Assembly: GCA_047626155.1 (NCBI GenBank) | Contig: JBLHRR010000013.1 | Span: forward strand, 270-64,269 | DNA from: Saprospiraceae bacterium | GTDB lineage: Bacteria; Bacteroidota; Bacteroidia; Chitinophagales; Saprospiraceae | Length of the DNA: 64,000 bases | Reading direction: 5' to 3' | Shown: positions 17,534-54,120 of the stretch, piece after piece | Position numbering within the stretch: the stretch's first letter is position 1 | Layout: each line of letters opens with the position of its first letter | Notes under the pieces: model-generated | The model's database searches: none | Seen by the model: only the letters and a program-made list of their open reading frames with translations | Told to the model about the DNA's origin: nothing | Position numbers and translations under genes: made by a program

Positions 17534-18298
17534 TCAAACATACTCTTTCCTTTGAACATATTTGGCCCAGAAGGCCCGAAGAATAATCCAGCTATGTGCA
17601 AAGAGGTTAGGGAAAAAACCATATTGCTTTTGTAAAATCTGATATCGATCCTTTAAACTCTGTTGATGCCTGTTCTTGGAAATCCCTCCCGTCAGATAAT
17701 GAGCCAGGATGATATTTGTCTGACTAGTCCTCCTGCTTTTCTTCAAACACTCGATAACCCAGTTGATATCTGCACTTAAATTATTCATCATGTATTTGGG
17801 CACAATTGTTCTCCTTGGCAAGAATCCTTGATGACAGACTACCATTCCATAACGCAATGATTTCCAAGTCAGTTGCTTGGGCAATTGTTGAGTCGTACAC
17901 TCACTACGAGTACCCAAAGCTTCCCGATGTTCATTGACTAACATAACTTCTCCGTAAAGCACATCCGTATCCTCTTCGCAACAAGCCACCATTTTACGGA
18001 CCGTATCTTTTGTTGGAATCGTATCTCCTGCGTTCATAAACCAAATAAAATCTCCGGTTGCCAAATCAATCCCTTTATTCATGGCATCGTATAAACCCTT
18101 ATCCGGTTCCGAAATCCAACGATCAATTTGTTCGTCTTTCTTCTGAATGAGCGCTAAGGAACCATCTGTAGAAGCACCATCCACTATGACATATTCAATA
18201 TTAGGATAGTCCTGTTCAAATACAGACATCATGGTCATCTCTAAAAGAGAGGCACTATTATAAACTACGGTAATGATACTGATAGTAGGTTGAGTCAT
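17534..18298 (-). CDS. family 2 glycosyltransferase
   Basis: ISIITVVYNSASLL...YVIVDGASTDGS is a typical GT2 N-terminal signature. 254 aa. Confidence 0.8.
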   Translation of the reverse strand: MTQPTISIITVVYNSASLLEMTMMSVFEQDYPNIEYVIVDGASTDGSLALIQKKDEQIDRWISEPDKGLYDAMNKGIDLATGDFIWFMNAGDTIPTKDTVRKMVACCEEDTDVLYGEVMLVNEHREALGTRSECTTQQLPKQLTWKSLRYGMVVCHQGFLPRRTIVPKYMMNNLSADINWVIECLKKSRRTSQTNIILAHYLTGGISKNRHQQSLKDRYQILQKQYGFFPNLFAHSWIILRAFWAKYVQRKEYV

Positions 18299-18349
18299 AG
18301 ATTTAACATACTGTAAAACAAAAATGGAGTTTCAAAGAAAGCTGCTAAA

Positions 18350-18472
18350 TAACAATAAAAAATTAACTTATAACAGTTCAAGCTTTTAGATAAAGCTAAA
18401 CGACTGCAGGGAGAGTGATTTAGCTAAGAGCTTGAGCGTAAACTGTTATAAATTATTTTTTGTGTAATATTA
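18350..18472 (+). repeat. family-1 long-hairpin element, divergent copy (different stems, same loop and flanks)
   Basis: The 5' flank is AACAATAAAAAATTAA. The outer stem TTATAACAGTT (18368-18378) pairs with AACTGTTATAA (18441-18451). The loop is AAACGACTGCAGGGAGAG and the 3' flank is AATTATTTTTTGTGTAATAT. Confidence 0.8.
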
Positions 18473-18837
18473 AAGATCAATAAAAAACCTAAGGATATGG
18501 CATATCCCCTTCAAAGATCGAAGATCGCAGGGAGATATGTCCTATCAGAGGAGGAACAATTCGGAATGCGTTCGGTGTGATTGGTTGTTGTATTTGAGCT
18601 GCCGCTATAAACGTGCAGTCAGTGTTGAACTGTCATACTGAGTGAACGCAGGCAGTCAAACAAGCAAAGACCAACTCCTATTCATCCCGAGCAAGGTACG
18701 AGTCGAATTCTATGATACTTGAAATCTACCTCCAAACTCAGATACCGTTTCTCAAATACCGCGCTGGAACAGTCTCCAACGAATTTCGTAACTATTACTA
18801 AAAAGCTTACCTTCGGCCAATAAATTCTTAGAACACA

Positions 18838-23130: not shown

Positions 23131-25563
23131 TTATTTCAAATCGATTTGGTATAAAGCTCGTTCTCCCAATTCCTCAGCTTGTTCCACAAACAGGAGTTTA
23201 TAATAATCTCCATTCGCCCAGTCTTTTATCATATTGTCATAATAGATAGAACCAGGATTCCCAGACTGTCCGCCTGGGTAAATACCGAAAGCTTCCAGTT
23301 CTTCTCCAAAGGAAACAACCATACGCCAGGAAGGGCCAAATCCATTTGGGTTCATAGCGTTCAAGGCATTTGGAGAGCCACCGATGGAAATATTTTCAGC
23401 ACCAAAAAAATGCCCCTGAGTTAAGTGCTTGATTTTTACGTTTTGCTGATCGTGCCACAGCAAAGATTCTTTTGCATCCTCTTTTTTTGAAATGTTGGTA
23501 CACATGATCTTAAAAGCTTTATTGACAACCGCTTTTGCATTTTCTTTCTCTGGCGTATTCTTAATGTCAAAGAATTCATTGTTGGGAGCATCTGCGAGTA
23601 AAGCAATGGTGCGCCATTCTTCTGGTACTAAAATATCCTTTCCCTTTTTAAGCGCTTCCATCTCATCCCAGGTCATTTTATAAAAAGAATTAAACCATTG
23701 TTCAAATAAGACAGGAGCGGTAGAATTTGGACTATAGCGATAATCCCATTGGGTGAGTTGTCTCAGATAATCTCGTTCCCACTCATCCAAATTAGTCCGA
23801 TCGATGAGAGGCAGCATGATTTCCAGTGCTTCTTTAGCTTTTAATGAAAAAGTATTGCTTTGCAAATCCATCATATCCTTAGGAATGATATTATCCATTT
23901 TTTCAAGAAAGCTATTCAGCGCTCGGCCCCGATAATCTTCAAATTGACCATTATAATAATAAGGGTAATCTTTTCCCGTAGATCGCTGATTAGCGGAAGC
24001 AACAAAACCACGTTTCGGATTTTTCACTTTGGGGTTGTGCGCCTCAGGTATAAAGCCCTGCCAATCGTTGCTGCTTTTGCTACCATCCTGAATGAAACGC
24101 CCTTGGGTATTTCTTTTAATTGGAAAACGACCTTGTACCTTCAACGCAATGTCTCCTTCTCTGCTTGCAAAGACAAAATTCTGAGCTGGTACTGCGTATG
24201 GTTTTAAAGCTACGGCATAATCGTCATAGTTTTTGGCTTTGTTTAGGTTGTTGATCACTTCTATTTCAGAAGCTTCCGGTTCGAAATGAGCCATCCAGCG
24301 CATGGCGAGATCTTGTTTCGCATGTCCCTTTGATTCATAAACGACAGGTCCCCAAACAGTATATTTCACGGTATCATATACAACTCCTTGTCCCTTTATT
24401 TCATAGCGCTCCACTACTTTATCTACCGCCATTAATTTTCCATCATAAAAATAAGATTCCTTCTTGGCCTCTGCCCAGTTAATGGTATACCAATCGAGAA
24501 CGTCATGAGCGACATTGGTCATTCCCCAAGCAATATCTTTATTGAAACCGATCATTACACCAGGAACACCCGGAAGGCTTACGCCATATACGTTTAGTCC
24601 CGGACTGTGCAGTTGTACTTCATACCAAACAGAAGGCAAGGTCAACGGCAAATGCGGGTCGTTACAAAGAATGGGGCCTTTTGTGTTGGTTTTGCTACCG
24701 GCCACCGCCCAATTATTACTACCAATACCGTCAGGCATCTGTGTACCTTCTCGGCGGGGTAGTGGAAGCTGGCTAAGAGTTGAGTTTATAATACTGTCTT
24801 GTAATTGTTGTTTGAAATTCCATTTAATCTCCGCTGGAATGACAGGGGATTCTTTTGGATTATTATCTGAGTATAATAAATCAAAAGTTTCCTGTCCGAA
24901 ATGAGCCAGTGTATTAGTCGCTTCTAAATCCATATTTCGGATACAAAGCGTTTGCGCCATGTTTTTCAGCATCAGACTCGTTTTCAGCGGAGTCCATGTT
25001 TCAGGGCTATAGTCGAGTAATTTGAATTCAACTGGATAATCCTTAGGCTTTAGTTTATTGATATAAGCATTAACCCCGGCGGTATAAGCCTCCAGCTTGG
25101 CAAAAGCAGCAGGTGATTCCTTCCAGACTTTCAAAGTGTTCGTTGCAGCATAGACCATACCCAGCCTTCGTTGATCCTTATCTGTTGATAAAGTAACATC
25201 CCCAAATATTTCTGATAATCGCCCTGCAGCTTTTCTACTGGCTAGGTCCATTTGGAACAAACGATGTTGAGCGGTAATATACCCTTGAGCGAAATATGCA
25301 TCTTTTTCATTTTGTGCAAAAATGTGAGGGACAAGCCGGTCATCGAGGGTAATTTTCACTGGTTCATTTAAACCGGCCAAATCGTAAGATTCGGACGGAT
25401 ATTTTGTTTGCTCTCCATTTTGCCAAAAACCAGTAAAGGGATTTAAGAGGTTTCCTAAGGGAGGTATGCTAGGGTTTTGAGGATTAGGGCGAATAGAGTT
25501 ACTTAATAGCCAGATAAGAGCGACGGTTATGGCAAGACTGAGGAAAAATAGGAAGCTGCGCAT
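23131..25563 (-). CDS. penicillin acylase-family Ntn hydrolase (possible acyl-homoserine-lactone acylase)
   Basis: 810 aa. It has a signal/anchor sequence and the autoprocessing/nucleophile context GIGSNNWAVAGSKT followed by NDPHL, as in S45-family acylases. Confidence 0.85.
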   Translation of the reverse strand: MRSFLFFLSLAITVALIWLLSNSIRPNPQNPSIPPLGNLLNPFTGFWQNGEQTKYPSESYDLAGLNEPVKITLDDRLVPHIFAQNEKDAYFAQGYITAQHRLFQMDLASRKAAGRLSEIFGDVTLSTDKDQRRLGMVYAATNTLKVWKESPAAFAKLEAYTAGVNAYINKLKPKDYPVEFKLLDYSPETWTPLKTSLMLKNMAQTLCIRNMDLEATNTLAHFGQETFDLLYSDNNPKESPVIPAEIKWNFKQQLQDSIINSTLSQLPLPRREGTQMPDGIGSNNWAVAGSKTNTKGPILCNDPHLPLTLPSVWYEVQLHSPGLNVYGVSLPGVPGVMIGFNKDIAWGMTNVAHDVLDWYTINWAEAKKESYFYDGKLMAVDKVVERYEIKGQGVVYDTVKYTVWGPVVYESKGHAKQDLAMRWMAHFEPEASEIEVINNLNKAKNYDDYAVALKPYAVPAQNFVFASREGDIALKVQGRFPIKRNTQGRFIQDGSKSSNDWQGFIPEAHNPKVKNPKRGFVASANQRSTGKDYPYYYNGQFEDYRGRALNSFLEKMDNIIPKDMMDLQSNTFSLKAKEALEIMLPLIDRTNLDEWERDYLRQLTQWDYRYSPNSTAPVLFEQWFNSFYKMTWDEMEALKKGKDILVPEEWRTIALLADAPNNEFFDIKNTPEKENAKAVVNKAFKIMCTNISKKEDAKESLLWHDQQNVKIKHLTQGHFFGAENISIGGSPNALNAMNPNGFGPSWRMVVSFGEELEAFGIYPGGQSGNPGSIYYDNMIKDWANGDYYKLLFVEQAEELGERALYQIDLK

Positions 25564-26004
25564 GTAAGGAAGTTTAGGTTTCTTTTAGTGTGTTTGGCAT
25601 AGATCAATGCTTTTAGTGGCATCGAATTATGAATTTTGTATGTATAAATTGACTTCCTTGGTATAGAAAGTACTTTATGTGACAGCAAAATAGGGCAATA
25701 AATGGAATTTCCTAAGACTAAACTCTAAAAAGAACGTGATAGAAAAAAAATAATGCATTTATATCGATTTACGAACTTTTGGCCTTAAATTTGAAAATAG
25801 ATAGATCATACGACGCGATGTATGTGGAAAATTATTAAACAATTTAATTCACTAACTTAGAAACATTCGATTCTGGAGCCTCGTTAAAAGAATAGAGGTG
25901 GTTTGGTGGATTTGTGACAGCATTCTTTTTTACAATATGATATATAAGACAGACTTTGTTCTGTTTTTAAAGATAGTTTTTGTGTTTATTTGTTTGGGTT
26001 AGAG

Positions 26005-26040
26005 ACCCTTGCTTTTCTAAAGCAAGGGTTTTCTTTTTTT
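26005..26040 (+). terminator. strong intrinsic terminator in an otherwise gene-free gap
   Basis: ACCCTTGCT (26005-26013) pairs with AGCAAGGGT (26021-26029), followed by TTTTCTTTTTTT. Confidence 0.75.
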
Positions 26041-26097
26041 GTATTGGGAGGTAATTTGGGGCAATAAATGATTTCATTTGGTGATAGCCAGTAAATT

Positions 26098-26200
26098 GGC
26101 GCTCCGCCAAGCATATTTTTTTACCGCAAAGGCGAAAAGAAACGCCATAAAGAAACTTTCCAGGAATTTAATGTTGCGAACCTTTGTGTTTTTGCGGTAA
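26098..26200 (+). repeat. ACCGCAA-type repeat forming an 80-nt hairpin
   Basis: A GGCGCTCCGCC hairpin lies at 26098-26108. TTACCGCAAA (26121-26130) is the exact complement of TTTGCGGTAA (26191-26200). An inner GGCG..CGCC hairpin is also present. Confidence 0.65.
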
Positions 26201-26346
26201 GATTGATTCATTCGTTTTGCTCTGCGGCCTCTGACTGAGTAATCCGGATAAGCTATTTCAGTATTATAATACGATAGTGAGAAGTTGATAATGAAATACG
26301 TTAGAAGGGTTGCGCTTAGGTATTCAATTCAATTACACATTAAAAT

Positions 26347-26382
26347 AAAAAAGCCCGATTGACTTAATCAATCGGGCTTTTT
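26347..26382 (-). terminator. intrinsic terminator of the DUF1573 gene
   Basis: AAGCCCGATTG (26351-26361) pairs with CAATCGGGCTT (26369-26379), flanked by an A-run and a T-run. Confidence 0.8.
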
Positions 26383-26400
26383 ACAAGAAACAAGTGGAAA

Positions 26401-26886
26401 TTACTTCCCTCCCTGTGGAGACAAAATACTAGGCTCGCTTGTAGGCAATGCAGCAGGTTCAGCTGTTCTTTTCAAAACAGTTCCTCTGATTGTCAATACA
26501 CGACTCTGGCCACTTGGCTCATTCGTAGAAACAGTTACTTTCTTTACGAAAGGCTTTCCACTATCACGTTTAGTGTCGTAGCGTACTTTGATTTCAGCTG
26601 ATTCTCCTGGGAAAATTGGCTCTTTTGGATACTCAGGAATGGTACATCCACAACTTCCTTTTGCATGAGTGATCTGAAGTGGTTCGTTACCTGTATTTTT
26701 AAAGGCAAAAGATCGATAAGGATCAGAATTGTATTCAATGGTACCGTAATCAACCTCTGTTGTTTCGAATTCCATTACTGGTCCGTCAGTTGATGGAGTT
26801 GGAGCAGCTGCTTCTGTAGCTGTTTGGGCACTAAGGGTTCCAAGAGTTAAAGTGAAAGCCATTAGTAAAGACAATAAGTTTTTCAT
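26401..26886 (-). CDS. DUF1573-domain secreted protein
   Basis: 161 aa. It has a signal peptide and VDYGTIEYNSDPYRSFAFKNTGNEPLQITHAKGSCGCT, the pattern I associate with DUF1573. Confidence 0.7.
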   Translation of the reverse strand: MKNLLSLLMAFTLTLGTLSAQTATEAAAPTPSTDGPVMEFETTEVDYGTIEYNSDPYRSFAFKNTGNEPLQITHAKGSCGCTIPEYPKEPIFPGESAEIKVRYDTKRDSGKPFVKKVTVSTNEPSGQSRVLTIRGTVLKRTAEPAALPTSEPSILSPQGGK

Positions 26887-27131
26887 TTAAAATATAATTT
26901 AAAGTTCATGAATTAGTGAAGTATTTCAAGGGACTTATACCCACGAATGAAATTGTAGTAAAACAAATTGGCATCTATATAAAAGCCTTTTGTATCATCT
27001 TACAAACAAAAGTAGGGATAATAATGCCAAATTTAAAGGATTCTAAGGGTAATTTCAGTTAATGATTCGTTAACAGTTATGCAGAAATTGGCCGAAATTT
27101 TTTATATTTTTGCAATTAAATTAGAGTTTAT

Positions 27132-27276
27132 GTCTAGAGATTTAGTGTCGGAACCAAAAAGAGATTTTTGGGCTAACCGATAAACGCACGGAACCTAATA
27201 GCTTTAGTTATTAAGGGGAGTAGCTGAGCACAGTTGGCCTAAAAAGGTCATTGGGGCTCCATCTAAATCTCTAGTC
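27132..27276 (+). other. candidate structured RNA / 5' leader upstream of the E1 dehydrogenase gene
   Basis: A 12-bp closing stem pairs CTAGAGATTTAG (27134-27145) with CTAAATCTCTAG (27263-27274). An internal hairpin CCAAAAA-GAGA-TTTTTGG lies at 27154-27171. It is preceded by a TAnnTTTG-type -7 box (TATTTTTG, 27105-27112). Confidence 0.3.
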
Positions 27277-27455
27277 ATCAGCGCTAAACCATCAAAGTCG
27301 GAACAATACTGCCTAGGAGGTAGTTATAATATAGTACCATTTAAAGTTGTTTGATCAGTATTGGCTGATTATCACTTTTACGGTTGTTTTCCAATTGGAG
27401 TTGGTCATCCTTACCAAGTGACTAGAAATAACAGTCGTAAAACAAAACCTTTTTT

Positions 27456-29849
27456 ATGTCTAAAGACTTTCTTTTAGAAAAAAACACAAATAAAAAAATC
27501 GAAAATTCACTGGAACACCAAAAAGATATTTTATCAGATTACCACCTTTGCTGCCTCAGTCGTGAAGTCAGTATTATGGCAAGGCGAGAAGTTCTCACAG
27601 GAAAAGCCAAATTTGGAATTATCGGAGACGGTAAAGAATTGCCTCAATTGGCGATGTCCAAGGTTTTTCAAAAAGGGGACTGGCGCTCGGGCTATTACCG
27701 GGACCAAACGGTTATGATGGCTTTGGATGTCACAACAATTGAACAATTTTTTGCTCAACTCTACGCGGACACTTACAATGATCCATTTTCTGGCGGCCGT
27801 CAAATGAACAGTCACTACGCTACACCCACCGTAGATGAAAATGGAGAATGGACCAACCACCTCAATCAATACAATACTTCCTCAGATATTTCCAGTACTG
27901 GAGGCCAAATGGCACGTGGACTTGGACTGGCATTCGCTTCCAAAAAATATCGGGAATTGTCAAAGCAACTTGGGGGAAATACTTTTTCTGAAAAAGGAAA
28001 TGAAGTTTGTTTTGTAACTATAGGAGATGCTAGTACCTCGGAAGGTGTATTTTGGGAAACCATAAACGCTGCTGGAGTACTTCAGGTGCCAATGGTTGTT
28101 TCTGTATGGGACGATGGATATGGTATTTCTGTTCCAAAAGAAATTCAAACGACTAAAGGCTCTATTTCTAAAGTACTGGAGGGCTTTCGGGCAGAAGAGG
28201 AAGGAAATGGAATAGATATATATAATGTCAAAGGTTGGGATTACCCAGCTTTATTGGCGACTTACAAAAAGGCGATTGACCGAAGTAGAAAAACACATAT
28301 TCCTGCGTTAATTCATGTAGAAGAGCTGACTCAGCAAACCGGTCACTCCACTTCAGGTTCTCACGAAAGATATAAGTCTAAAGACAGATTGACTTGGGAA
28401 AAAGAGTATGATTGTAATCTGCAATTCCGAAATTGGATCGTAGCGGAAGGAGTCGCTGATGAAGAAACATTAAAAGAAATCGAAGAGCAGGCAAAAATAG
28501 AGGCGAAAGAAGGAAAGAATAATGCTTGGGCTGCTTACCTCAAACCCGTCAACGAAGCAGTAGAGGGTTTGTCAAATGTTTATTCTCAGGTAGGGGATTT
28601 AAACCCTTCTTATCAAGCTCTCTTTACAGAATCAAGTGAGAAGCTGGCTAAAATACTAAACCCAACTATTGGAGAAATAGTAGAGTATACACGTCGATTG
28701 AAATTTGAATTAGAAGATGCAGACGTAGACTTAGGTCCAATCGACAATTGGCTGAAAGCGACTTATGAAAAAGCAGAGGTCGACTACCATAGCAATCTAT
28801 ATAATGAAACAGTAACCAGCGCCATGAAGGTACCGGAAGTACCTGCTGTTTTCTCTGAAACTTCTGTGTCTAAAAATGGCTACGAAATCCTTAACGCCTT
28901 CTTCGATAAGATTTTTGAAAAATATAACAACGTATTTGCATTTGGAGAAGACGTCGGTCACATCGGTGATGTCAATCAGGGCTTTGCAGGGATTCAGGAA
29001 AAATACGGAATTGAAAGAGTTTTTGATACTGGAATTCGTGAATGGAGTATTATGGGGCAAGCGATCGGAATGGCCTTGAGAGGTTTACGCCCAATTGCAG
29101 AGATCCAATATTTGGATTATCTGATCTATGGTTTACAACCGCTGACAGATGACTTAGCTACGTTACATTATCGAACAGATGGTATCCAATTGGCTCCAGC
29201 TATTATCCGAACCCGAGGTCACCGTCTGGAAGGGATCTGGCACTCTGGTTCTCCAATGGGAATGATTATAAACTCCCTGAGAGGAATGCACATTTGTGTT
29301 CCCCGAAATATGACACAGGCTGCGGGTATGTATAGCACTTTGCTACAAGCAAATGACCCTGCTATCGTTATTGAATGTTTGAACGGCTATCGCCTCAAAG
29401 AGAAGATGCCGGACAACCTTTCTGAATTTACAGTACCACTCGGGGAGCCTGAAGTTTTACAGAAAGGAACAGACGTAACGTTGGTCACTTATGGCTCCTG
29501 CATTCGTATTGCGCAAGCCGGGATTAAATTGTTAGAAAAGAAAGGAATCTCTGTAGAATTGATCGACGTGCAAACATTGTTGCCTTTTGATGTCAACCAT
29601 AGAATTGTTGCATCACTGAAAAAGACGACCCGCATTGTTTTTATGGACGAAGATGTTCCCGGAGGTGCTACGGCTTACATGATGCAAGAGGTCATGGAAA
29701 AGCAAAAAGGTTTCTTCTATTTGGATGCTTCGCCAACGACCATTTCGGCTAAAGCGCATCGACCACCCTATGGTTCAGACGGAGATTACTTTACCAAACC
29801 AAATGCGGAGGATGTTTGTGAAGTGATTAGTAAATTGGTGAAAGAGTAA
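27456..29849 (+). CDS. 2-oxoacid (branched-chain-type) dehydrogenase E1 component, fused alpha+beta subunits
   Basis: 797 aa. The N-terminal half has a TPP-binding E1-alpha-like region (TIGDASTSEGVFWETINAAGV). The C-terminal half is transketolase-like E1-beta (FGEDVGHIGDVNQGF...). The fused form is common in Bacteroidetes. Confidence 0.85.
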   Translation: MSKDFLLEKNTNKKIENSLEHQKDILSDYHLCCLSREVSIMARREVLTGKAKFGIIGDGKELPQLAMSKVFQKGDWRSGYYRDQTVMMALDVTTIEQFFAQLYADTYNDPFSGGRQMNSHYATPTVDENGEWTNHLNQYNTSSDISSTGGQMARGLGLAFASKKYRELSKQLGGNTFSEKGNEVCFVTIGDASTSEGVFWETINAAGVLQVPMVVSVWDDGYGISVPKEIQTTKGSISKVLEGFRAEEEGNGIDIYNVKGWDYPALLATYKKAIDRSRKTHIPALIHVEELTQQTGHSTSGSHERYKSKDRLTWEKEYDCNLQFRNWIVAEGVADEETLKEIEEQAKIEAKEGKNNAWAAYLKPVNEAVEGLSNVYSQVGDLNPSYQALFTESSEKLAKILNPTIGEIVEYTRRLKFELEDADVDLGPIDNWLKATYEKAEVDYHSNLYNETVTSAMKVPEVPAVFSETSVSKNGYEILNAFFDKIFEKYNNVFAFGEDVGHIGDVNQGFAGIQEKYGIERVFDTGIREWSIMGQAIGMALRGLRPIAEIQYLDYLIYGLQPLTDDLATLHYRTDGIQLAPAIIRTRGHRLEGIWHSGSPMGMIINSLRGMHICVPRNMTQAAGMYSTLLQANDPAIVIECLNGYRLKEKMPDNLSEFTVPLGEPEVLQKGTDVTLVTYGSCIRIAQAGIKLLEKKGISVELIDVQTLLPFDVNHRIVASLKKTTRIVFMDEDVPGGATAYMMQEVMEKQKGFFYLDASPTTISAKAHRPPYGSDGDYFTKPNAEDVCEVISKLVKE

Positions 29850-29926
29850 GCGAAAAAAGACTCAAATATAAAAGGCCACGGAAAATCAGAAAGTATAAAA
29901 GCTTTGTGCTTCTTCGTGGCCTTTGT

Positions 29927-30047
29927 ATACAACGAAAAATTAAATCCCGATTTGGAAACGATTATGTAAATCAAAATGACTAAAGGGAGAGTGATTTATA
30001 TAATCGTTTCCACTAAAGAAATCGGGAAATTATTTTTGTGTAATACT
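29927..30047 (+). repeat. family-1 long-hairpin element, canonical copy
   Basis: ACAACGAAAAATTAA-ATCCCGATTT-GGAAACGATTATGTAAATCA-AAATGACTAAAGGGAGAG-TGATTTATATAATCGTTTCC-ACTAAAGAAATCGGG-AAATTATTTTTGTGTAATACT. Confidence 0.9.
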
Positions 30048-30162
30048 TTGTAGTTTTAAAGATGTCTTTTTACCGTTAGAAGGTTCTGCGTGATTATTCG
30101 TATATCATGTGCCCTCATTTTTTCACTTTTTTTCACATTCTCATTCGTTCCTCTCTTCTCTC

Positions 30163-31392
30163 TCAAAGGCTCACACTCAACTCTGCCGTAGCTTTCAATA
30201 AACAGTCAATGCCCTTTTTTCCAACAATAAAATTACTTAAGCTAATCTTCTGAATATCAATCGCCGCTTTAATACCATCCTTCGGCGAAAAACCCCTCAA
30301 TCGTTTCACCTCTTTCAGAGTAATAATATCATCCAATTTATATTGCAAACGCTCTTCCATTTCCTTCTTAATACGGTCGGAAAATAAATTCACAATACTT
30401 TTTTTCCAAAAGGAAGTAGCCTTCATTTCAAAGGCCTGTATTTGCATTGTTATTTGATTCTCTTGCTTATTGTAAATGGGAAGACAATCCATTTCAATGT
30501 TGCCTTCTATAAAACCAGACAAGCCAATATTGAAATGCAGCGCCGTATTAGTTTTGTTTAATTGTAAACTAGAAAAGATCACGGTTTTCTCCTTGTAAGA
30601 AAATGATTGACCTTTAAGCTGGCTTGCCAGTATTTGCTCAATGTCCGAATAGTGCAGGGACACATTTACATTGATATCACTTTGCTCATTTTCTTCTTTA
30701 ATATCAAAAGATGGGGTAGGGAGGGCTTCCTTTTTTTGCTCTTGTGGGATACTACTCAGATCAATATTGAGTAAGCAATCAAGCTGGGTAGAAAGTTCGG
30801 CGTCTTTTGTTACGGTCGGGGACAACTGAATACGCTCAGGTAAAAGCTGTAAAAACAAAGAAAGTCCCGGTCTAAGCTGATGCGATTTTTGAAAGAAAGC
30901 TTCTGCCATCATTGCTACTCCTGCCTTATTCCAAAAATTGGCAATAGCCTTATCTACTTCTCCTTCGATCTTTTTTTTGTTTTTCCCAAGAAATTGATCG
31001 GCCATTTTCTCGACGGAGAAATTCAAAATACTGAACTGCACATCCGGTTTGTCCAACCAAGTATATCGCTCTACCTTTGTATCCGTTATTAATTGCCAAT
31101 AAGGTTGAAAGTCAATCTTTGTTCTGAAAGATAATTCAATCGCCCCCTGTGCCTCTACCAAGCCAAGAAGTCTTTTTCCTATGAATTGAATACCCAAAGG
31201 AATCGAAAGCAGGATGTCCTGACCAATAATGTCGACTTTCAAATCTCCCTTTTTACTAAGGAATACCTCACCCATATCGATTTGTTGAGGAGGCAAAACA
31301 GAGACGGCTTGATCCACTTGCTGATTGATCAATTTTACGAATTTGTCTTTGTCTATATTAATACCAGCCTTAAGCGCCGCAGATTCTTTCAT
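30163..31392 (-). CDS. hypothetical protein (possibly DUF4403-like)
   Basis: 409-aa ORF with coding-like composition. The family guess is from weak recollection only. Confidence 0.45.
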   Translation of the reverse strand: MKESAALKAGINIDKDKFVKLINQQVDQAVSVLPPQQIDMGEVFLSKKGDLKVDIIGQDILLSIPLGIQFIGKRLLGLVEAQGAIELSFRTKIDFQPYWQLITDTKVERYTWLDKPDVQFSILNFSVEKMADQFLGKNKKKIEGEVDKAIANFWNKAGVAMMAEAFFQKSHQLRPGLSLFLQLLPERIQLSPTVTKDAELSTQLDCLLNIDLSSIPQEQKKEALPTPSFDIKEENEQSDINVNVSLHYSDIEQILASQLKGQSFSYKEKTVIFSSLQLNKTNTALHFNIGLSGFIEGNIEMDCLPIYNKQENQITMQIQAFEMKATSFWKKSIVNLFSDRIKKEMEERLQYKLDDIITLKEVKRLRGFSPKDGIKAAIDIQKISLSNFIVGKKGIDCLLKATAELSVSL

Positions 31393-31512
31393 TTTTTTGT
31401 ATAGGTTTGAAACAAATATCTCTTAATAAAGTAGCATAAACAACTAGTACTTAAATCTTGTTTATTAGAAGCATAAAATTATCTTTGCTCCTTATTCAGC
31501 AAACAAAAACAC

Positions 31513-32247
31513 GTGTCCAAGAATTTAGTCATAATTCCTACTTACAACGAGAAAGAGAATATCACCAAAATGATAAAGGTGGTTTCTGAACTCGATATGG
31601 ACTTCCACATACTAATTGTGGATGATGGTTCTCCTGATGGAACTGGCCAAATCGTTAAAGATCTTCAGGCTACTTACCCTGGGATATTGCATATAGAGGA
31701 GCGGAAGGGTAAGCTGGGTTTGGGTACCGCCTACATCCACGGATTTAAATGGGGGCTGAAAAGAGGCTACGACTACCTGATTGAAATGGATGCTGATTTT
31801 TCTCATAACCCAAAAGATTTGCTTCGTTTACAGCGGGCTTGTGCAGAAGAAGGTGCAGATGTGGCTGTTGGGTCCCGATATACAAAAGGGGGGAAAGTAG
31901 AAAACTGGCCTTTTGATAGAATCTTTTTATCCTACGGTGCGTCTATATATGTACGTGCCATTACTTGGATGCCTGTGAAAGATCCAACGGCAGGTTTTGT
32001 TTGTTATAAACGGAAAGTGCTGGAAACTTTGGATCTGGATAAGATCAGGTTCGTTGGTTATGCTTTTCAAATTGAAATGAAATTTGCTTCTCGTTCTTTA
32101 GGATTTAAGATAAAAGAAGTGCCCATTACCTTTATTGACAGGGTAGAAGGTGTTTCTAAAATGAATACAAGTATAGTGAATGAGGCTATTTTTGGCGTTT
32201 TGCAAATGAAGTGGGAAAGTTTCTCTACTTCTTATGCAAAGGATTAA
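31513..32247 (+). CDS. polyprenol-phosphate mannosyltransferase-like GT2 (Dpm1/PpmS-like)
   Basis: 244 aa (GTG start). Motifs include LVIIPTYNEKENI, ILIVDDGSPDGTG and EMDADFSHNPKDL. Confidence 0.8.
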   Translation: MSKNLVIIPTYNEKENITKMIKVVSELDMDFHILIVDDGSPDGTGQIVKDLQATYPGILHIEERKGKLGLGTAYIHGFKWGLKRGYDYLIEMDADFSHNPKDLLRLQRACAEEGADVAVGSRYTKGGKVENWPFDRIFLSYGASIYVRAITWMPVKDPTAGFVCYKRKVLETLDLDKIRFVGYAFQIEMKFASRSLGFKIKEVPITFIDRVEGVSKMNTSIVNEAIFGVLQMKWESFSTSYAKD

Positions 32248-40017: not shown

Positions 40018-41337
40018 ATGAAAGCAGTAATCTTAGGTGCTGGAGAAAGTGGAGTAGGAGCGGCATTATTGGCAAAGCAAGAAGGCTACAAAGTCTTCGT
40101 ATCTGATTTTGGAAAAATAAAAGAGAGCTTTAAAAAGGAATTGGAGCAACATCAAATCCCTTTTGAAGAAAACAAACATACAAACGAATTAATCTTTGAT
40201 GGGGATTGCATTATCAAAAGTCCGGGAATACCCGACACGGTAACTATCGTTCAGGAAGCACTGAATCGAAAAATACCAGTCATTTCGGACATTGAATTTG
40301 CAGCAAAATTCTGTAAAGGAAAAATAATCGCCATCACAGGTAGCAATGGGAAGACAACCACGACCAAACTAATTTACCACCTTCTCCACAAGGCTGGCCT
40401 TTCGGTCGGTATTGGCGGAAATGTAGGATTTAGCTTCGCTAGGTTACTCACCCATAAACAGCAAAAGGATTGTTATGTATTGGAGCTCAGTAGCTTCCAA
40501 TTAGACAATTGCTACGATTTTCGACCAGAGATTGCACTCTTGCTCAATATCACTGCCGATCACATGGATCGCTACGATTACAAGATCAGCAATTACGTTG
40601 CATCGAAATTTCGAATTATTCAAAAACAGCAGGATTCCGATCTTTTTATCTACAATGAAGCAGACGAAAATATCAAATCCTACCTAAATAAAAAGCCAGT
40701 TGGGATGAACACCATTCCGGTTAGTGATAAGTTCTTTGAAAATAAAACAATACGTACACGAGAAAATCAGTACACACTGAAAGGCACGAATTTAAAAGGC
40801 CCGCACAACGGATTTAATGCGACTTGTGCTCTACTCGTTGCTGAAAAGATGGGAATTGCTAAAGAAAGTTTACAAGAGAGTTTAACCACTTTCGTAAATG
40901 CGCCACATCGTTTAGAGTTCGTTGCCGAAATTAACGGAGTCGATTATATAAACGATAGCAAAGCGACCAATGTAGACTCTGTTTATTATGGTTTGCTAGC
41001 TATGGAAAAACCCTTGGTTTGGATCGCAGGCGGTATAGACAAAGGAAACGATTACAGTTCCATTTTACCACTAGTCAAAGAAAAGGTAAAGGCCATAGTT
41101 TGTTTAGGAGCCGACAACGAAAAGCTACTAAAAGAATTTTCACCACTAGTACAAATCATAAAGGAAACACAAAGCGTAACAGAAGCTATTGAACTGGCTG
41201 CTGCTTTTGCAGAACCAGGAATGACGGTTTTATTATCTCCCGCTTGTTCTAGCTTTGATCTTTTTGAAAACTATGAAAAGAGAGGAGAGCTATTTAAGGA
41301 GGCCGTGCATAATCGAAAATTGAAAGAGAACGAATAA
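40018..41337 (+). CDS. murD: UDP-N-acetylmuramoylalanine--D-glutamate ligase
   Basis: The ORF track starts at 39991 inside a repeat. The ATG at 40018 gives MKAVILGAGESGVGAALLA, a typical MurD N-terminus. GSNGKTTT is present. Confidence 0.93.
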   Translation: MKAVILGAGESGVGAALLAKQEGYKVFVSDFGKIKESFKKELEQHQIPFEENKHTNELIFDGDCIIKSPGIPDTVTIVQEALNRKIPVISDIEFAAKFCKGKIIAITGSNGKTTTTKLIYHLLHKAGLSVGIGGNVGFSFARLLTHKQQKDCYVLELSSFQLDNCYDFRPEIALLLNITADHMDRYDYKISNYVASKFRIIQKQQDSDLFIYNEADENIKSYLNKKPVGMNTIPVSDKFFENKTIRTRENQYTLKGTNLKGPHNGFNATCALLVAEKMGIAKESLQESLTTFVNAPHRLEFVAEINGVDYINDSKATNVDSVYYGLLAMEKPLVWIAGGIDKGNDYSSILPLVKEKVKAIVCLGADNEKLLKEFSPLVQIIKETQSVTEAIELAAAFAEPGMTVLLSPACSSFDLFENYEKRGELFKEAVHNRKLKENE

Positions 41338-41355
41338 TATTTTTTGTGTAATACT
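41335..41355 (+). repeat. solo copy of the family-1 3'-terminal motif, beginning at the murD stop codon
   Basis: The sequence is TAATATTTTTTGTGTAATACT. Its last 17 nt (41339-41355) are identical to 41465-41481, the 3' end of the adjacent full element. Confidence 0.8.
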
Positions 41356-41356
41356 T

Positions 41357-41481
41357 AGTAACAACGAAAAATTAACTTTCCGATTTGGAAACAATTATGT
41401 AAATCAAAACGACCAAAGGGAGAGTGATTTATATAATTGTTTCCACGAAAGAAATCGGGAAATTATTTTTTGTGTAATACT
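41357..41481 (+). repeat. family-1 long-hairpin element, canonical copy between murD and ftsW
   Basis: Full architecture is present. The inner stem carries the compensatory pair GGAAACAATTAT / ATAATTGTTTCC. The element ends 8 nt before the ftsW ATG. Confidence 0.9.
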
Positions 41482-41489
41482 TAACGTCC

Positions 41490-42623
41490 ATGTCAATAGG
41501 AAATAAAATATACGCAGAGTTACGAGGCGATAGAGCTGTTTGGATGATCCTACTTATGTTGGTCATCTTTTCCTTGTTGACGGTCTATAGCTCAACGGGG
41601 CATATGGCTTTTCAAAAGCAAGGCGGGAATACCGAATTTTACCTTTTGAAGCATTTTTTCTTCATCTGTATCGGTTTGACCCTGACTTACATTTGTTATG
41701 TTATGCATTATACACAGTATATGAAAATCGCACCGATACTGTTGGTTATTTGTATTCCACTGTTGATGTATACCATAGGATTTGGGGTGGAGGTAAATGA
41801 TGCGAGGCGTTGGTTGAGGATACCTTTTATAGGCTTAACCTTTCAGACATCGGATTTTGGAAAACTAGCTCTGATCATTTATGTAGCCCGCGCAATTTCA
41901 GCGAAACAGGATTATATAAAAGATTTTAAATCGGCTTTCTTACCGATCATCGTACCCATACTGATTATTTGTGGATTGATTGCTCCAGCGGATTTATCCT
42001 CAGCGCTTTTACTTTTTGTAACCTGTATCGGAATGATGTTTTTAGGAAGAGTAGCGGTACAATATATATTCCTGTTGCTCCTATTGGGGATTGTAGTTTT
42101 TGCAGGCTTGATTGTAATCGGAGAATTTTTTCCAGATTTTGTAAGAACAGATACCTGGATCGAAAGACTAAGAGCCTTCTTGGAGGAGACAGAACCGGGT
42201 CACCAGATTCTACATTCTAAAATAGCCATTGCCAACGGAGGCATATTCGGAGCAGGCCCAGGAAACAGTGTAATGCGGAATTATCTGCCAGCTCCTTACT
42301 CCGATTTTATCTATGCTATGATATGCGAAGAGTATGGTTTGGTTGGAGGCTTTACGATAATTTGTTTATATGTGTTTTTGTTTTTCCGTTGTGTAAGTAT
42401 TGTTACAAGAGCACCTAAGGCATTCGGAGCCATGTTGGTTATGGGATTGGGGATGTTGATGGTTATACAAGCATTGGCAAATATGGCTGTAACAGTACAG
42501 TTGGTTCCAGTAACCGGATTGACACTGCCACTGGTAAGTATGGGAGGAACCTCAATCGTATTTACCTGTATCTCTTTTGGAATGATACTAAGTGTGAGTC
42601 GATATATTGAAAAGACAAGTTAG
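41490..42623 (+). CDS. ftsW: SEDS-family cell division protein FtsW
   Basis: 377 aa, polytopic. RWLRIPFIGLTFQTSDFGKLALIIY, SDFIYAMICEEYGLVG and PLVSMGGTS are typical FtsW/RodA motifs. The dcw position supports the call. Confidence 0.9.
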   Translation: MSIGNKIYAELRGDRAVWMILLMLVIFSLLTVYSSTGHMAFQKQGGNTEFYLLKHFFFICIGLTLTYICYVMHYTQYMKIAPILLVICIPLLMYTIGFGVEVNDARRWLRIPFIGLTFQTSDFGKLALIIYVARAISAKQDYIKDFKSAFLPIIVPILIICGLIAPADLSSALLLFVTCIGMMFLGRVAVQYIFLLLLLGIVVFAGLIVIGEFFPDFVRTDTWIERLRAFLEETEPGHQILHSKIAIANGGIFGAGPGNSVMRNYLPAPYSDFIYAMICEEYGLVGGFTIICLYVFLFFRCVSIVTRAPKAFGAMLVMGLGMLMVIQALANMAVTVQLVPVTGLTLPLVSMGGTSIVFTCISFGMILSVSRYIEKTS

Positions 42624-42638
42624 GAAGGCCGAACGCGA

Positions 42639-42700
42639 CCCCTAAAGGGGAGACCTAACGCGCGCCCAGAGCTTACCGAGATGTAGCTCCCCTTTAGGGG
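42639..42700. repeat. GC-rich inverted repeat CCCCTAAAGGGGAG / CTCCCCTTTAGGGG after ftsW
   Basis: A 14-bp perfect complement joins 42639-42652 and 42687-42700. Each arm is also self-complementary (CCCC-TAAA-GGGG). Confidence 0.65.
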
Positions 42701-42839
42701 CAGGGGGTAAATGCATGGAAAGTTTTTACTAAAAGAATGTAAAATAATTGAACAGTTAATAGTCAGGAGTTAACGATTAATAGTTGGTAGTCAGTAGTAA
42801 AAAACTAAATTACCGTCTAACCAAATTATTTACTCAATT

Positions 42840-43958
42840 ATGAAATCAGAAAAAAGAAATAGAAAAGTAATAATCAGTGGCGGTGGTACAGGAGGCCATG
42901 TCTTCCCAGCAATCGCGATAGCAGATGCATTGAAGGAGAAAGATCCAACAATAGAAATACGCTTTGTAGGGGCGCAAGGGAAAATAGAAATGGAGAAAGT
43001 TCCAGCGGCAGGTTATCCAATAGATGGACTTTGGATCAGCGGCATACAGCGGAAACTCACTTTAAAAAATTTACTCTTTCCATTCAAGCTGATTAGCAGT
43101 ATGTGGAAAGCACATAAAATAATTGGTCGTTTTCGGCCAGATGTAGCAGTAGGCGTTGGAGGCTATGCGAGTTATCCAACCTTAGCAGTGGCTGCCAGAA
43201 GAGGCATTCCCACATTGATACAAGAGCAGAATTGCTATGCGGGTGTAACCAATAAGATGTTACAAAACAAAGTGTGCACTGTTTGTGTGGCTTATGATAA
43301 AATGGATCGCTACTTTCCAAAAGCAAATATCATCTGGACAGGAAATCCGGTACGGAAAGATATAGCAGAATTGGAAGGGAAGAAAGCAGAAGCATTGGCT
43401 CACTTTGGTTTTAAGTCAGATCGAAAGACCATTGTCATAATAGGCGGATCATTGGGCGCTCGAACTTTGAATGATAGCATGGGAGCTAATGTTGCTTTAC
43501 TGGCAAAACATCCAGAGGTACAGGTTTTGTGGCAAGCTGGAAAGTTGTACATCGAAGAGTTTAAGGACTCAGAGACTGCCCGTTTGGAAAATGTAAGAGT
43601 GCAAGCTTTTATCAAACGGATGGATTTAGCTTATGCGATGGCAGATGTAGTGATAGGAAGGGCAGGGGCTTTAACCATTTCTGAACTGTGCCTGGTCGCA
43701 AAACCAGCCATCTTAGTTCCTTCGCCAAACGTGGCTGAAGACCACCAAACGAAGAATGCAATGGCCTTGGTGGAGAAGGATGCAGCTATTTTAGTCAAAG
43801 ATAAAGATGCCAAAGGGATGATTCAAAACGCAATTGAACTGTTAGCCGATTTTGATAAGATGACTTTATTGTCACAAAATATTAAAACATTGGCCAAACC
43901 TGATGCTGCTGCTCAAATTGCAGACGAAGTGATGAAACTCATTGATAATCAGCCATAA
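42840..43958 (+). CDS. murG: UDP-N-acetylglucosamine--N-acetylmuramyl-(pentapeptide) pyrophosphoryl-undecaprenol GlcNAc transferase
   Basis: 372 aa. GGGTGGHVFPAIAIA, GGSLGA and the C-terminal HQTKNA motif are present. Confidence 0.95.
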   Translation: MKSEKRNRKVIISGGGTGGHVFPAIAIADALKEKDPTIEIRFVGAQGKIEMEKVPAAGYPIDGLWISGIQRKLTLKNLLFPFKLISSMWKAHKIIGRFRPDVAVGVGGYASYPTLAVAARRGIPTLIQEQNCYAGVTNKMLQNKVCTVCVAYDKMDRYFPKANIIWTGNPVRKDIAELEGKKAEALAHFGFKSDRKTIVIIGGSLGARTLNDSMGANVALLAKHPEVQVLWQAGKLYIEEFKDSETARLENVRVQAFIKRMDLAYAMADVVIGRAGALTISELCLVAKPAILVPSPNVAEDHQTKNAMALVEKDAAILVKDKDAKGMIQNAIELLADFDKMTLLSQNIKTLAKPDAAAQIADEVMKLIDNQP

Positions 43959-44120
43959 AGAGCATTATTATATTAAAATAAATTACAAATTACAAAACAA
44001 ATGAATAAATATTTTTTTATATAATAATTACGGCACATACTTTGATATTTAAGCCTGATGTACAGTGCTTTATAAAGATAAAAAGATACAATTAATAAAA
44101 ACTGTAATGTTAATAGACCT

Positions 44121-45512
44121 GTGATAAAAAAGCGCTTAGAACTCGAAGACCTAAAAACGATCTATTTGATCGGTATCGGTGGCATCGGAATGAGTGCATT
44201 GGCCAGATATTTTTTACAACGCGGTGCGGCCGTGTATGGCTACGATAAAACCGCAACAGTGCTTACCAGAAAGCTGGAAGCTGAAGGGATGACAATCCAC
44301 TACGACGAAGATGTAGCACGAATACCAAAAGGAGTTGATCTGGTAATTTTTACACCAGCCATTCCAGCGAAACATCGGGAATTACAGTACTTCCGTACCA
44401 ATGATTTTCCGATTATGAAACGCGCAGAGGTATTGGGATTGATCAGTCGAAACTTGAAAACCATAGCGGTTGCAGGGACACATGGAAAGACAACGACAAG
44501 CGCTATTGTGAGCCATATCATTCGAACGGGCGGGATTGATAGTACTGCTTTTTTAGGCGGCATAGCTCAGAATCTTGGCTCGAATTACGTTGGTGGAAAG
44601 AGCAACTGGATGGTGGTAGAAGCGGACGAGTTTGATCGTTCTTTTTTACACCTGAGTCCAGATTTAGCGATTATCCTTTCTATGGATCCAGATCATCTGG
44701 ATATATATGGAGCGCATGACGAGCTGAAGAAAACCTTCGCCGAATTTGCGGGACAGTTGAAAGAAGGCGGGCAGTTGTTTGTACAAGCCGACTTGCCTTT
44801 AGAGATGCCAGGACAAATGAGTTTTGGTTTAGAAAAGGGAGATTATTTTGTATATAATGAGCGGGTTGAAAATGGCTGTGCTGTTTTTGATTTCAAAAGT
44901 CCTAAAGGCAGTATTGATAACATTGTTTTTACAATGCCCGGCCGACACAATATAACAAACGCCTGTGCTGCCATTGCCGTAGCGCAGGAACTGAATATTT
45001 CGGCGAAAGCCATCAAAGACGCATTGGCTTCATTCAAAGGAATAAAGCGACGTTTTGAAAGAGTATATAGTGATGAACAAGTGGCGTATGTTGATGACTA
45101 CGCCCATCATCCAACAGAGTTAAAAGCAGCGATAGATGCGACCCGACAATTGTTTCCCGGAAGGAAAATAACAGGAATCTTTCAACCACATCTGTTTTCC
45201 AGAACCCGTGATTTTGTAAAGGGTTTCGCTGAAGCACTGGATGGTCTGGATGAATGTATACTAATGGATATCTACCCGGCAAGAGAAGAGCCGATACCGG
45301 GAGTTAGTTCTGCAATTATTTATAATAAGATGAATCTTGCAAGCCGGACACTAGTTAATAAAAAGACGCTGATGGAAGAGCTGGCTGAAAAAGAAATTGA
45401 TGTATTACTTACTTTAGGAGCTGGAGATATTGACAGGTTTGTGCAACCCATAAAAAGCTGGTTGGAACAAAGAGTTGGTTGGAACAAAGAAGACCATGAA
45501 AAAGAAGAATAA
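44121..45512 (+). CDS. murC: UDP-N-acetylmuramate--L-alanine ligase
   Basis: 463 aa (GTG start). Motifs: IGIGGIGMSALA, GTHGKTTT and DDYAHHPTE. Confidence 0.95.
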   Translation: MIKKRLELEDLKTIYLIGIGGIGMSALARYFLQRGAAVYGYDKTATVLTRKLEAEGMTIHYDEDVARIPKGVDLVIFTPAIPAKHRELQYFRTNDFPIMKRAEVLGLISRNLKTIAVAGTHGKTTTSAIVSHIIRTGGIDSTAFLGGIAQNLGSNYVGGKSNWMVVEADEFDRSFLHLSPDLAIILSMDPDHLDIYGAHDELKKTFAEFAGQLKEGGQLFVQADLPLEMPGQMSFGLEKGDYFVYNERVENGCAVFDFKSPKGSIDNIVFTMPGRHNITNACAAIAVAQELNISAKAIKDALASFKGIKRRFERVYSDEQVAYVDDYAHHPTELKAAIDATRQLFPGRKITGIFQPHLFSRTRDFVKGFAEALDGLDECILMDIYPAREEPIPGVSSAIIYNKMNLASRTLVNKKTLMEELAEKEIDVLLTLGAGDIDRFVQPIKSWLEQRVGWNKEDHEKEE

Positions 45513-46284
45513 AAAAAAGAACGCAACCTTTGTCCTGAATTTGTTCTGGTTGGTTTTGTTTTTCGTAGCAGCCATTTTAATAATTTGGTCCATCGAAAAG
45601 AAACAAGCCAAAATAACAGGAGAGTTGACGATAATAGTAGAAGACTTACCAGAAGGTAACAATCTACTTACAAAAGAGGATGTTTTGGAACGCTTACAGA
45701 AAAGTTTTGTTATAGGCTTGTCTGGACAGCCGGTAGGAGCGCTGGATGTAAAGCAGATAGAAGCAGTATTGGAAGAAGATCCTTTTGTGAAAGCTGCGGA
45801 AGTTTACATCAATGCAAAAAACAAAGTTCACATTGAATTGAAGCAAAGAGTACCATTGTTGCGAGTGATTGATGCAGAAGGAGAGAATTATTACTTAGAT
45901 AAAGCAGGCAACAAGATGCCGCTATCCAAACATTTTACCGCAAAGGTTTTAGTAGCGAATGGAAATATTCCACCGCACATTCCCAACTTTAGGGAAAAAC
46001 CAAAACATGCTTTGCGAGATTTGTTTGAATTGACAAATAGAATTTTAAAAGATGATTTTCTGGAACCATTAGTTGCACAGATTTACCGCGACAAAAAAGG
46101 GAGTTTTATACTGGTTCCAATCGTAGGAAATCAAAACATAGTCTTCGGACCTTATGAATCGGTAGAAGACAAGTTTTTTAGATTAGAGCAGTTTTATTTA
46201 AAAGCTGTACCATACACTGGATGGAATAAATACAAAACGATTAATCTGACATTCAAAAATCAGGTAGTTTGCGAAAAACGATAG
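45496..46284 (+). CDS. ftsQ: FtsQ-like cell division protein
   Basis: The ORF track starts at 45475. The ATG at 45496 gives a basic N-terminus followed by a TM helix (FVLNLFWLVLFFVAAILIIW) and a POTRA-like region. It overlaps the end of murC. Confidence 0.75.
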   Translation: MKKKNKKKNATFVLNLFWLVLFFVAAILIIWSIEKKQAKITGELTIIVEDLPEGNNLLTKEDVLERLQKSFVIGLSGQPVGALDVKQIEAVLEEDPFVKAAEVYINAKNKVHIELKQRVPLLRVIDAEGENYYLDKAGNKMPLSKHFTAKVLVANGNIPPHIPNFREKPKHALRDLFELTNRILKDDFLEPLVAQIYRDKKGSFILVPIVGNQNIVFGPYESVEDKFFRLEQFYLKAVPYTGWNKYKTINLTFKNQVVCEKR

Positions 46285-46331
46285 GATGATCCCATTTTCC
46301 GATTTTTTAAGCACTGCCAAAAAATTATACT

Positions 46332-47690: not shown

Positions 47691-47732
47691 TATGGTAATA
47701 CTGTTACATAAAAGGATAAAAAAGCTGAGCTA

Positions 47733-47856
47733 AGTAACAACGAAAAATTAAATCCCGATTTGGAAACAATTATATAAATCAAAACGATCATAGGGAGAGT
47801 GGTTTACATAATTGTTTCCACGAAAAAAGGCGGGAAATTATTTTTGGTGTAATACT
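47733..47856 (+). repeat. family-1 long-hairpin element, canonical copy between ftsA and ftsZ
   Basis: Full architecture is present. The loop is AAAACGATCATAGGGAGAG. It shares the A:T compensatory inner-stem variant with the murD-ftsW copy. Confidence 0.9.
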
Positions 47857-47933
47857 AAATATCAGCAACTGAAATTATTAAGACTTAAGGATCGATTTAT
47901 TTAAACTTATTTAAACTCAAAAAAAGAAATATC

Positions 47934-53772: not shown

Positions 53773-54120
53773 AAAGGAAATATGGATTTGATCTTTGACA
53801 AAGAAAACAGTGATTAGGTCAAAGAAGCGTACAGTTATTACACAAAAATTTGTTTGCACAAAGTGTATTAGCGGCAATAAGAAATAAATATCTGGCTTTT
53901 CCAAATTTTAAATTCATCAATTGTGGATATTCTCATTAAAAACCCTTATTTTAGGACAGATCGCATGATTAATACCCATCACCTCGCTTTTTACAAGAAT
54001 CATTACCGTTTTCAAGCTCAAAAGATAAGGAAGAAAGCTCTTGTATTCCTGCACTTGACAAGCAGAGATAAAAAGCTTACTTTTGCGCCGTATTTGAGAG
54101 ATGTTGGGCAATTGTACATC

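Follow-up and report, generated by a model that had tools for sequence, protein, structure and literature searches.

A new family of ~123-bp non-coding MITEs with covarying arms in uncultured Saprospiraceae

The repeats at 18350-18472 and 54121-54237 are members of a new family of non-coding MITEs, about 123 bp long, in uncultured Saprospiraceae. The family is new within a known kind of element, and it is marked by unusually clear covariation and by a conserved apical motif. Seven copies, all located between ORFs, were found in the window (the whole 64-kb stretch of DNA that was analysed), and at least 20 copies are known from four sources: the 13 copies outside the window come from a related Saprospiraceae MAG and from two sets of metagenome contigs.

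Copies and anatomy of the element

The copies of the window are given below with their target site duplications (TSDs), their scores with a covariance model (CM) and the main parts of the divergent copies.

18349-18470, plus strand: divergent copy 1, a complete 122-bp element with its own arm type; CM score 121.9 bits, hairpin z = -5.6
18346-18348 (left) and 18471-18473 (right), plus strand: TSD TAA of divergent copy 1, from flank comparison
18349-18367, plus strand: 5' terminal inverted repeat of divergent copy 1, ATAACAATAAAAAATTAAC, from alignments; pairs with the 3' end as helix 1
18399-18415, plus strand: conserved tip motif of divergent copy 1, AACGACTGCAGGGAGAG, a mini-stem with tandem G.A closing a triloop
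18449-18470, plus strand: 3' terminal inverted repeat of divergent copy 1, TAAATTATTTTTTGTGTAATAT, from motif search and alignment
29925-30046, plus strand: canonical copy, TSD TTT, between convergent genes
41335-41354, plus strand: solo 3' end remnant, TAATATTTTTTGTGTAATAC, adjoining the copy at 41358-41480
41358-41480, plus strand: canonical copy, TSD TTA, in the murD-ftsW spacer
47734-47855, plus strand: canonical copy, TSD TAA, in the ftsA-ftsZ spacer; site empty in relatives
54114-54236, plus strand: divergent copy 2, with a third arm type and a decayed 5' end; CM score 110.9 bits, z = -4.1; no recognisable TSD at its flanks
54165-54181, plus strand: conserved tip motif of divergent copy 2, AACGACCACAGGGAGAG
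58613-58735, plus strand: canonical copy, TSD TAA, antisense between two minus-strand genes
61259-61381, minus strand: canonical copy, TSD CTA, 46 nt upstream of a WbqC-like gene

The copies listed in the first-pass annotation are real, but the canonical minus-strand copy at 61259-61381 had been overlooked. Motif searches in the window returned 8 matches to the tip motif AGGGAGAGTGNTTTA (0.59 expected) and 9 matches to the 3' flank motif (0.19 expected). A repeat search grouped four canonical copies (starting at about 29924, 41357, 47732 and 58612) and paired 18357-18469 with 54123-54235, at 78% identity. The seven window copies served to build the CM. Representative genomes were scanned with a loose pattern, which listed mostly chance matches, the only real ones being in the Saprospiraceae MAG SGMAG-66 (GCA_045105695.1), with at least 8 copies among the matches listed; the CM confirms these 8 at 58-91 bits. 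The dcw contig of the same MAG holds a ninth copy. Only 3 further copies came from a metagenome scan, and one more from a search of protein databases with the open frame of a canonical copy, made to catch spurious ORFs. CM scores of the 20 copies range from 58 to 151 bits; with the motif statistics, they exclude the reading of the repeats as chance look-alikes. Family statistics refer to these 20 copies from four sources, many of which are related by descent.

Element length ranges from 121 to 125 bp. Three parts are common to 20/20 copies: the 5' end G(T/C)AACAACGAAAAATTAAC, the tip AACGACC-NNN-GGGAGAG and the 3' end GAAATTATTTTTTGTGTAATAC. Expressed as end motifs, the element runs from GYAACAACGAAAAATTAAC to GAAATTATTTTTTGTGTAATAC. 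Its ends are terminal inverted repeats (GTAACAACGAAAAATTAAC compared with the reverse complement GTATTACACAAAAAATAATTTC), imperfect and roughly 20 nt long. Like other MITEs, which are under about 500 bp long, the element is thus small, non-coding, multi-copy, mostly intergenic and bounded by terminal inverted repeats. In the canonical copies one frame is open across the whole element (window 41340-41500, frame +3; locus L181, 429-599), and P0241, a 56-aa 'hypothetical protein' of the JGI annotation, is simply a translated copy. No coding frame is conserved, because the divergent copies have stops in all frames.

The window contains a Bacteroidota-type dcw cluster (mraZ ... murD-ftsW-murG-murC-ftsQ-ftsA-ftsZ), a 289-aa RpoD and several proteins with type IX secretion (Por_Secre_tail) domains. 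The closest homologues of its FtsA and of a glycosyltransferase belong to Saprospiraceae MAGs, and SGMAG-66 is a close relative (FtsA 94% identical, glycosyltransferase 78%). The protein encoded at 17534-18298 is identical to a public entry, P0121, labelled 'Polaribacter sp.' MAG; this label is probably wrong, since all close FtsA and glycosyltransferase relatives are Saprospiraceae. At about 24000-32000 the GC skew passes from near zero or negative to clearly positive, and gene orientation from mostly minus to mostly plus, which may reflect a replication-related strand switch or a mere effect of gene orientation.

Several local features were observed around individual copies. The solo 3' end at 41335-41354 immediately precedes the intact copy 41358-41480 on its 5' side; the TTA between them is the same TTA that is duplicated at the far side of the copy, and translation of murD stops at the first TAA of the remnant. 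The remnant may have been left by a tandem or adjacent insertion that later suffered a deletion. The possibility that MurD had gained a C-terminal extension from the MITE was rejected, the MurD tail of a relative being equally long. Two genomes have an antisense copy that ends, on its 3' side, 4-5 nt from the stop codon of a gene on the minus strand (window 58735-58742; locus L038, 1943-1950), which indicates that insertions are tolerated right at gene ends; insertions at such places may supply or shift the stop context. Just 3' of the copy 18349-18470, at 18494-18545, are small palindromes (GGATATGGCATATCC and GATCGAAGATCG) and the motif AGGGAGAT, within a stretch of about 290 nt absent from the close relative L178. 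The TAA insertion site of the ftsA-ftsZ copy is located in the loop of a short inverted repeat, GCTGA...TCAGC (window 47700-47733 and 47856-47875), also present at the empty site of a relative (L170, 11357-11466); by eye, no similar inverted repeat was evident at the flanks of the other window copies.

Pairing and covariation of the arms

On the strength of the two divergent copies, conservation at the level of structure had been proposed for this repeat. This is real and broader than the window shows: at least nine arm types, from four sources, keep their pairing while ends and tip stay constant. All the coordinates and pairings then quoted are present in the sequence. In copy 1, TTATAACAGTT (18368-18378) pairs with AACTGTTATAA (18441-18451), and TCAAGCT (18378-18384) with AGCTTGA (18429-18435); in copy 2, TTAGATC (54134-54140) pairs with GATCTAA (54211-54217), and CAATCATTT (54145-54153) with AAATGATTG (54192-54200). 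The double change from G:C to A:T in the copies starting at about 41357 and 47732 was found as described. Whichever strand is folded, all copies form one long hairpin, with z values between -4 and -8.5, and the fold of the sense RNA is more stable than that of the antisense in 6/6 copies.

Covariation was examined on an alignment of the 20 copies fitted to the RNA structure model. Standard pairs make up 92.9% of its cells, compared to 73% with shuffled columns and 36-51% when the partners are slid by 1-3 columns. Both sides have changed at 26 of the 42 pairs. Double changes concern 25 of the 28 pairs of the two variable helices, and the outer helix, formed by the ends, is almost invariant. Because this alignment had been fitted to the model, the analysis was rerun with plain MAFFT and RNAalifold, which gave 30 pairs, 16 of them compensated. 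The rerun agrees, so the structural claim holds and is stronger than the window alone had shown. Mean identity among 8 arm types is 0.83 for the 5' end, 0.86 for the tip and 0.93 for the 3' end, against 0.40-0.55 for the arms: the arm sequences drift freely with compensatory changes. Intermediates also exist, such as G.U states between G:C and A:U, and together with the nine pairing arm types they establish both divergent copies as true family members, not chance resemblances.

Other points of the initial description have to be modified. The stems had been called unrelated: this applies to the middle helix, which is fully replaced relative to the canonical copies (1-2 of 9 positions identical), but the arms of the inner helix are still 55-75% identical among the three window types. 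The flanks, regarded as a mere conserved single strand, in fact pair with each other as terminal inverted repeats; they form an outer helix of 11 pairs (95% paired, 6 pairs invariant) and are bordered by the 3-bp target duplication. The apical segment is conserved as stated, but it is partly structured rather than a single-stranded loop, with C-G, G.A, A.G, C-G and C-G closing a variable triloop. Most changes in its three-pair mini-stem replace C by U and so retain a U.G pair (8 cells, compared with 3 that are unpaired). Across subfamilies and genomes the parts kept are therefore the terminal inverted repeats, the 17-nt apical motif AA-C-GA-CC-NNN-GG-GA-G-AG, and the pairing of the arms, including a bulge of about 6 nt on the 3' side.

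Mobility and class of the element

A resident RNA or ssDNA gene had been implied for these repeats. The element is instead a mobile non-coding transposon, as indicated by its TSDs, terminal inverted repeats, empty sites and deletion stubs. With the element taken as G(T/C)AAC...AATAC and the register fixed, 11 of the 18 scored copies have an exact 3-bp TSD; tolerating a 1-nt indel raises this to 13. The offset controls gave a mean of 0.37 and a maximum of 3. In the window, 6 of the 7 copies have a TSD (TTT, TTA, TAA, TAA, CTA and TAA). The intact duplications include TTA (six times), TAA (four times), CTA, TAT, TTT and ATA, all of the fixed 3-bp length. The element thus inserts by a 3-bp staggered cut at A/T-rich, T-W-A-like triplets, which it duplicates.

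Orthologous sites are polymorphic for the presence of the element. Comparison with the spacers of relatives, suggested in the first-pass annotation as a check on structure, revealed empty sites or deletion stubs, that is, mobility rather than a resident gene. In GCA_964508085.1, whose FtsA is 96% identical, the ftsA-ftsZ spacer lacks the copy and reads GCTG..TAA..ATCAGC, an empty site. In all, the empty site was seen in two close relatives, in loci L170, L171 and L182; the last of these is from SGMAG-66, whose ftsA-ftsZ spacer of 128 bp holds no copy detectable by the model. Conversely, SGMAG-66 has a copy between murG and murC, where the window has none, so that the dcw clusters of these sister genomes carry insertions at different sites. 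At the orthologous site of copy 18349-18470, relative L178 retains TAA and the first 15 nt of the 5' end, the rest being lost; with its TSD and 5' stub, this site indicates an old insertion. For copy 54114-54236, relative L170 has a short 5' stub, with a deletion bounded by TCAA microhomology. These empty sites and stubs mark the divergent copies as older insertions, from earlier subfamilies, and the canonical copies as younger; successive subfamilies co-exist. Neither model R1 nor model R2 detected a copy in the roughly 190 kb that came from relatives other than SGMAG-66, and R2, the broader model, added no further or degenerate copies in 305 kb. Such a patchy distribution is typical of mobile elements. 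Taken together, the TSDs, the terminal inverted repeats, the empty sites, the stubs and the differing dcw insertions identify the element as a MITE.

Attribution to a transposase family is a lead only, because no transposase was found: searches of the window with NCBIfam and Pfam returned none, and neither the window nor the fetched loci contain an autonomous element with these ends. Apart from the remnant at 41335-41354 and its copies in the same-species loci L050-L052, no solo end occurs in the window or the searched loci, and the remnant flanks no ORF; a near-match of the end motif in L005 turned out to be the start of a gene. The lead comes from the 3-bp duplication at T-W-A-like targets, which the element shares with IS5/PIF-Harbinger elements and which would suit an IS5/DDE-like assignment. 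The ISL2 and IS1031 subgroups of IS5 make 3-bp target duplications. Elements of both subgroups occur in Bacteroidota (PMC3196728). For Tourist-like MITEs and PIF-Harbinger elements, 3-bp target duplications, typically TTA/TAA, are described (PMC2213677). The likeness of the element, whose ends read GTAAC..., to all of these concerns the duplication. No match to the window was obtained in Rfam at the gathering threshold, and permissive settings gave only generic sub-threshold hairpin matches on two copies. BLAST searches of plasmid and phage collections gave no match, viral contigs gave chance matches only, and the sequence motifs of the element are absent from the literature searched.

Among described families the closest case is bcr1 of the Bacillus cereus group, a MITE-like repeat of about 155 bp that is transcribed and shows compensatory base changes read at the RNA level (PMC3184786). 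Both are small non-coding mobile repeats with short direct repeats and a compensated long hairpin, and the distribution of bcr1, like that of the Saprospiraceae element, is not conserved between related strains (PMC3184786). The two differ, on a comparison of descriptions rather than sequences, in their direct repeats (5 bp for bcr1, 3 bp here) and in their hosts (Firmicutes and Bacteroidota). Unlike bcr1, the Saprospiraceae element replaces whole sets of arms between subfamilies while its 17-nt tip is fixed. ERIC/IRU and the Correia elements of Neisseria (NEMIS) are intergenic MITEs of 100-160 bp with terminal inverted repeats, which form long hairpins when co-transcribed, and a central functional motif, an IHF site, is described for Correia (PMC2229807). 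They resemble the present element, again by description and not by sequence, in size, intergenic location, terminal inverted repeats and long hairpin. However, they duplicate TA and not 3 bp, their subfamilies differ mainly by indels and not by fully covarying arms, and a G.A-containing apical mini-stem is not known to be described for them.

Why the arms pair, and what it means

The explanation that we hold to be, on balance, the probable one is that of a new MITE mobilised by a transposase in trans, in which the ends and tip act in cis and the arms are required to pair as a folded sense single strand. The transposase would read the ends of the element, and a 3-bp T-W-A duplication is typical of DDE enzymes of IS5/PIF-Harbinger type; the tip would serve as a second cis-acting site. 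At some step that decides which lineages propagate, the element would be read as a folded single strand in the sense orientation, either a transcript or transiently single-stranded DNA. Transcript processing, outward promoter activity and other effects on the host would be of secondary importance.

The mismatches in the arms bear on this point. The initial statement that they are mostly G.T, with two A.C, is borne out in the window by the alignment fitted to the RNA model (21 G.T against 2 A.C), but the lean is weaker in a strand-neutral recount. For the 20 copies the model-fitted alignment gives a ratio of 57:9, biased by the RNA model and by shared descent. In the strand-neutral count each 5' arm was aligned to the reverse complement of its own 3' arm: isolated mismatches are then 24 G.T and 16 A.C, 12 of the A.C being one conserved site at the junction of end and stem. 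Within the variable helices only, the same count gives 24 G.T against 4 A.C, or about 14 against 4 independent events. This strand asymmetry moderately favours a fold of the single-stranded sense strand. Since the arm mismatches lean to G.T in that strand, folding as a single strand, either RNA or ssDNA, is probably important for propagation, and the arms most likely need to pair in single-stranded form. Orientation was also considered. In spacers of tandem genes, 5 copies are co-oriented with transcription and 2 anti-oriented, without significant bias; relative to GC skew the numbers are 9 and 7, also without bias. Neither an RNA-level role nor a role as lagging-strand ssDNA is therefore independently supported by orientation. 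To our knowledge, no double-strand DDE transposase needs a single-stranded fold.

A possible but rather unlikely alternative keeps the same MITE and regards the complementarity of the arms as a passive by-product at the DNA level: in a foldback palindrome, template switching within the element (correction of quasi-palindromes), or the manner in which subfamilies arise, would keep the arms alike. Tip and ends would then be double-stranded sites for the transposase or for a DNA-bending protein, and no fold of RNA or ssDNA would be selected. Template-switch correction of quasi-palindromes is an established mutational process; the mobility evidence fits this explanation equally well, as does the absence of orientation bias to transcription or replication, and a central bend or cruciform would help to join the ends of a 123-bp element. 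Three observations are less easily accommodated. Young canonical copies carry 2-5 uncorrected single mismatches each, which shows that correction from arm to arm is not fast. In one strand, most of the mismatches that remain in the helices are G.T (the ratio of 24 to 4), which a double-strand or cruciform mechanism does not predict. Finally, the asymmetric 3' bulge and the asymmetric tip have been preserved and not symmetrised.

A more specific proposal, which goes further than the probable one and which we regard as doubtful, is that the element propagates through a strand-specific folded intermediate or cofactor, its own transcript or an ssDNA hairpin, recognised through the paired ends and the G.A-containing apical mini-stem. 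If true, this would be a structure-read transposon that still makes 3-bp duplications, a mode undescribed for bacterial MITEs or their DDE partners.

It is improbable that the fold and tip are kept by host selection, the transcripts acting as cis-regulatory RNA (a hairpin for processing or stability, a terminator or attenuator, or an outward promoter). Some copies do occupy spacers within operons of essential genes (murD-ftsW, ftsA-ftsZ), and copies are also found at 11-80 nt upstream of genes with the same orientation; pairing is also still good in the old copies 18349-18470 and 54114-54236, though a relative has lost them. But close relatives have these sites empty or deleted, so that no copy is indispensable. 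The 3' end holds TTATTTTT(T)G, near the Bacteroidota -7 box, which we take to be TAnnTTTG, but the exact match occurs in only 3 of the 20 copies. As to termination, a consensus scan for intrinsic terminators, which consist of a short G+C-rich stem and a T run immediately after it, in 41000-48200 flags neither copy of that region, and the T run itself pairs with the 5' A run. The ratio of 5 to 2 co-oriented copies is not significant, and selection on individual insertions cannot explain why tip and ends are conserved across subfamilies that are still spreading.

A known type of single-strand recombination or transposition site (attC-like, a palindrome of IS200/IS605 type, or a REPIN mobilised by a RAYT) is very improbable. 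An attC site is a folded single strand with a conserved base that pairs with itself, a variable paired middle and asymmetric extrahelical bases; the present element, with its long hairpin, its structure conserved beyond sequence, its asymmetric bulge and its strand-biased mismatches, resembles this arrangement. The TSDs nevertheless exclude these readings: both flanks carry the duplicated triplet, which differs between copies, and attC, IS200/IS605 and REPIN make no such duplication. Moreover, attC sites stand in cassette arrays next to an integrase, with RYYYAAC/GTTRRRY cores and a variable tip, and none of this is true of the Saprospiraceae element, whose ends lack R''/R' cores and whose copies are solitary. 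There is no GTAG/CGTC head and no fixed 5' target tetranucleotide, and no integrase, TnpA-Y1 or RAYT gene was found in the window. Lastly, a non-mobile family of small-RNA genes, or chance look-alikes of a decaying repeat, is barely credible: the covariation does resemble that of an RNA family, but TSDs, insertion polymorphism, patchy distribution, the lack of a conserved promoter upstream of the element and of an Rfam match speak against such genes, and CM scores and motif statistics against look-alikes.

These results carry a caution for the discovery of RNA motifs: covariation alone would call this element a non-coding RNA, and it is the 3-bp duplications and empty sites that reveal a transposon. 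The insertions within the dcw spacers murD-ftsW and ftsA-ftsZ differ between sister genomes and may thereby alter the expression of division genes. Model R2 and the end motifs provide a handle for finding the partner transposase in Saprospiraceae. In this family a mobile element is seen to evolve as structured RNAs do: ends and tip are frozen, and the arms can change if pairing is kept. The frozen ends and tip mark the parts that are probably read by the mobilisation machinery.
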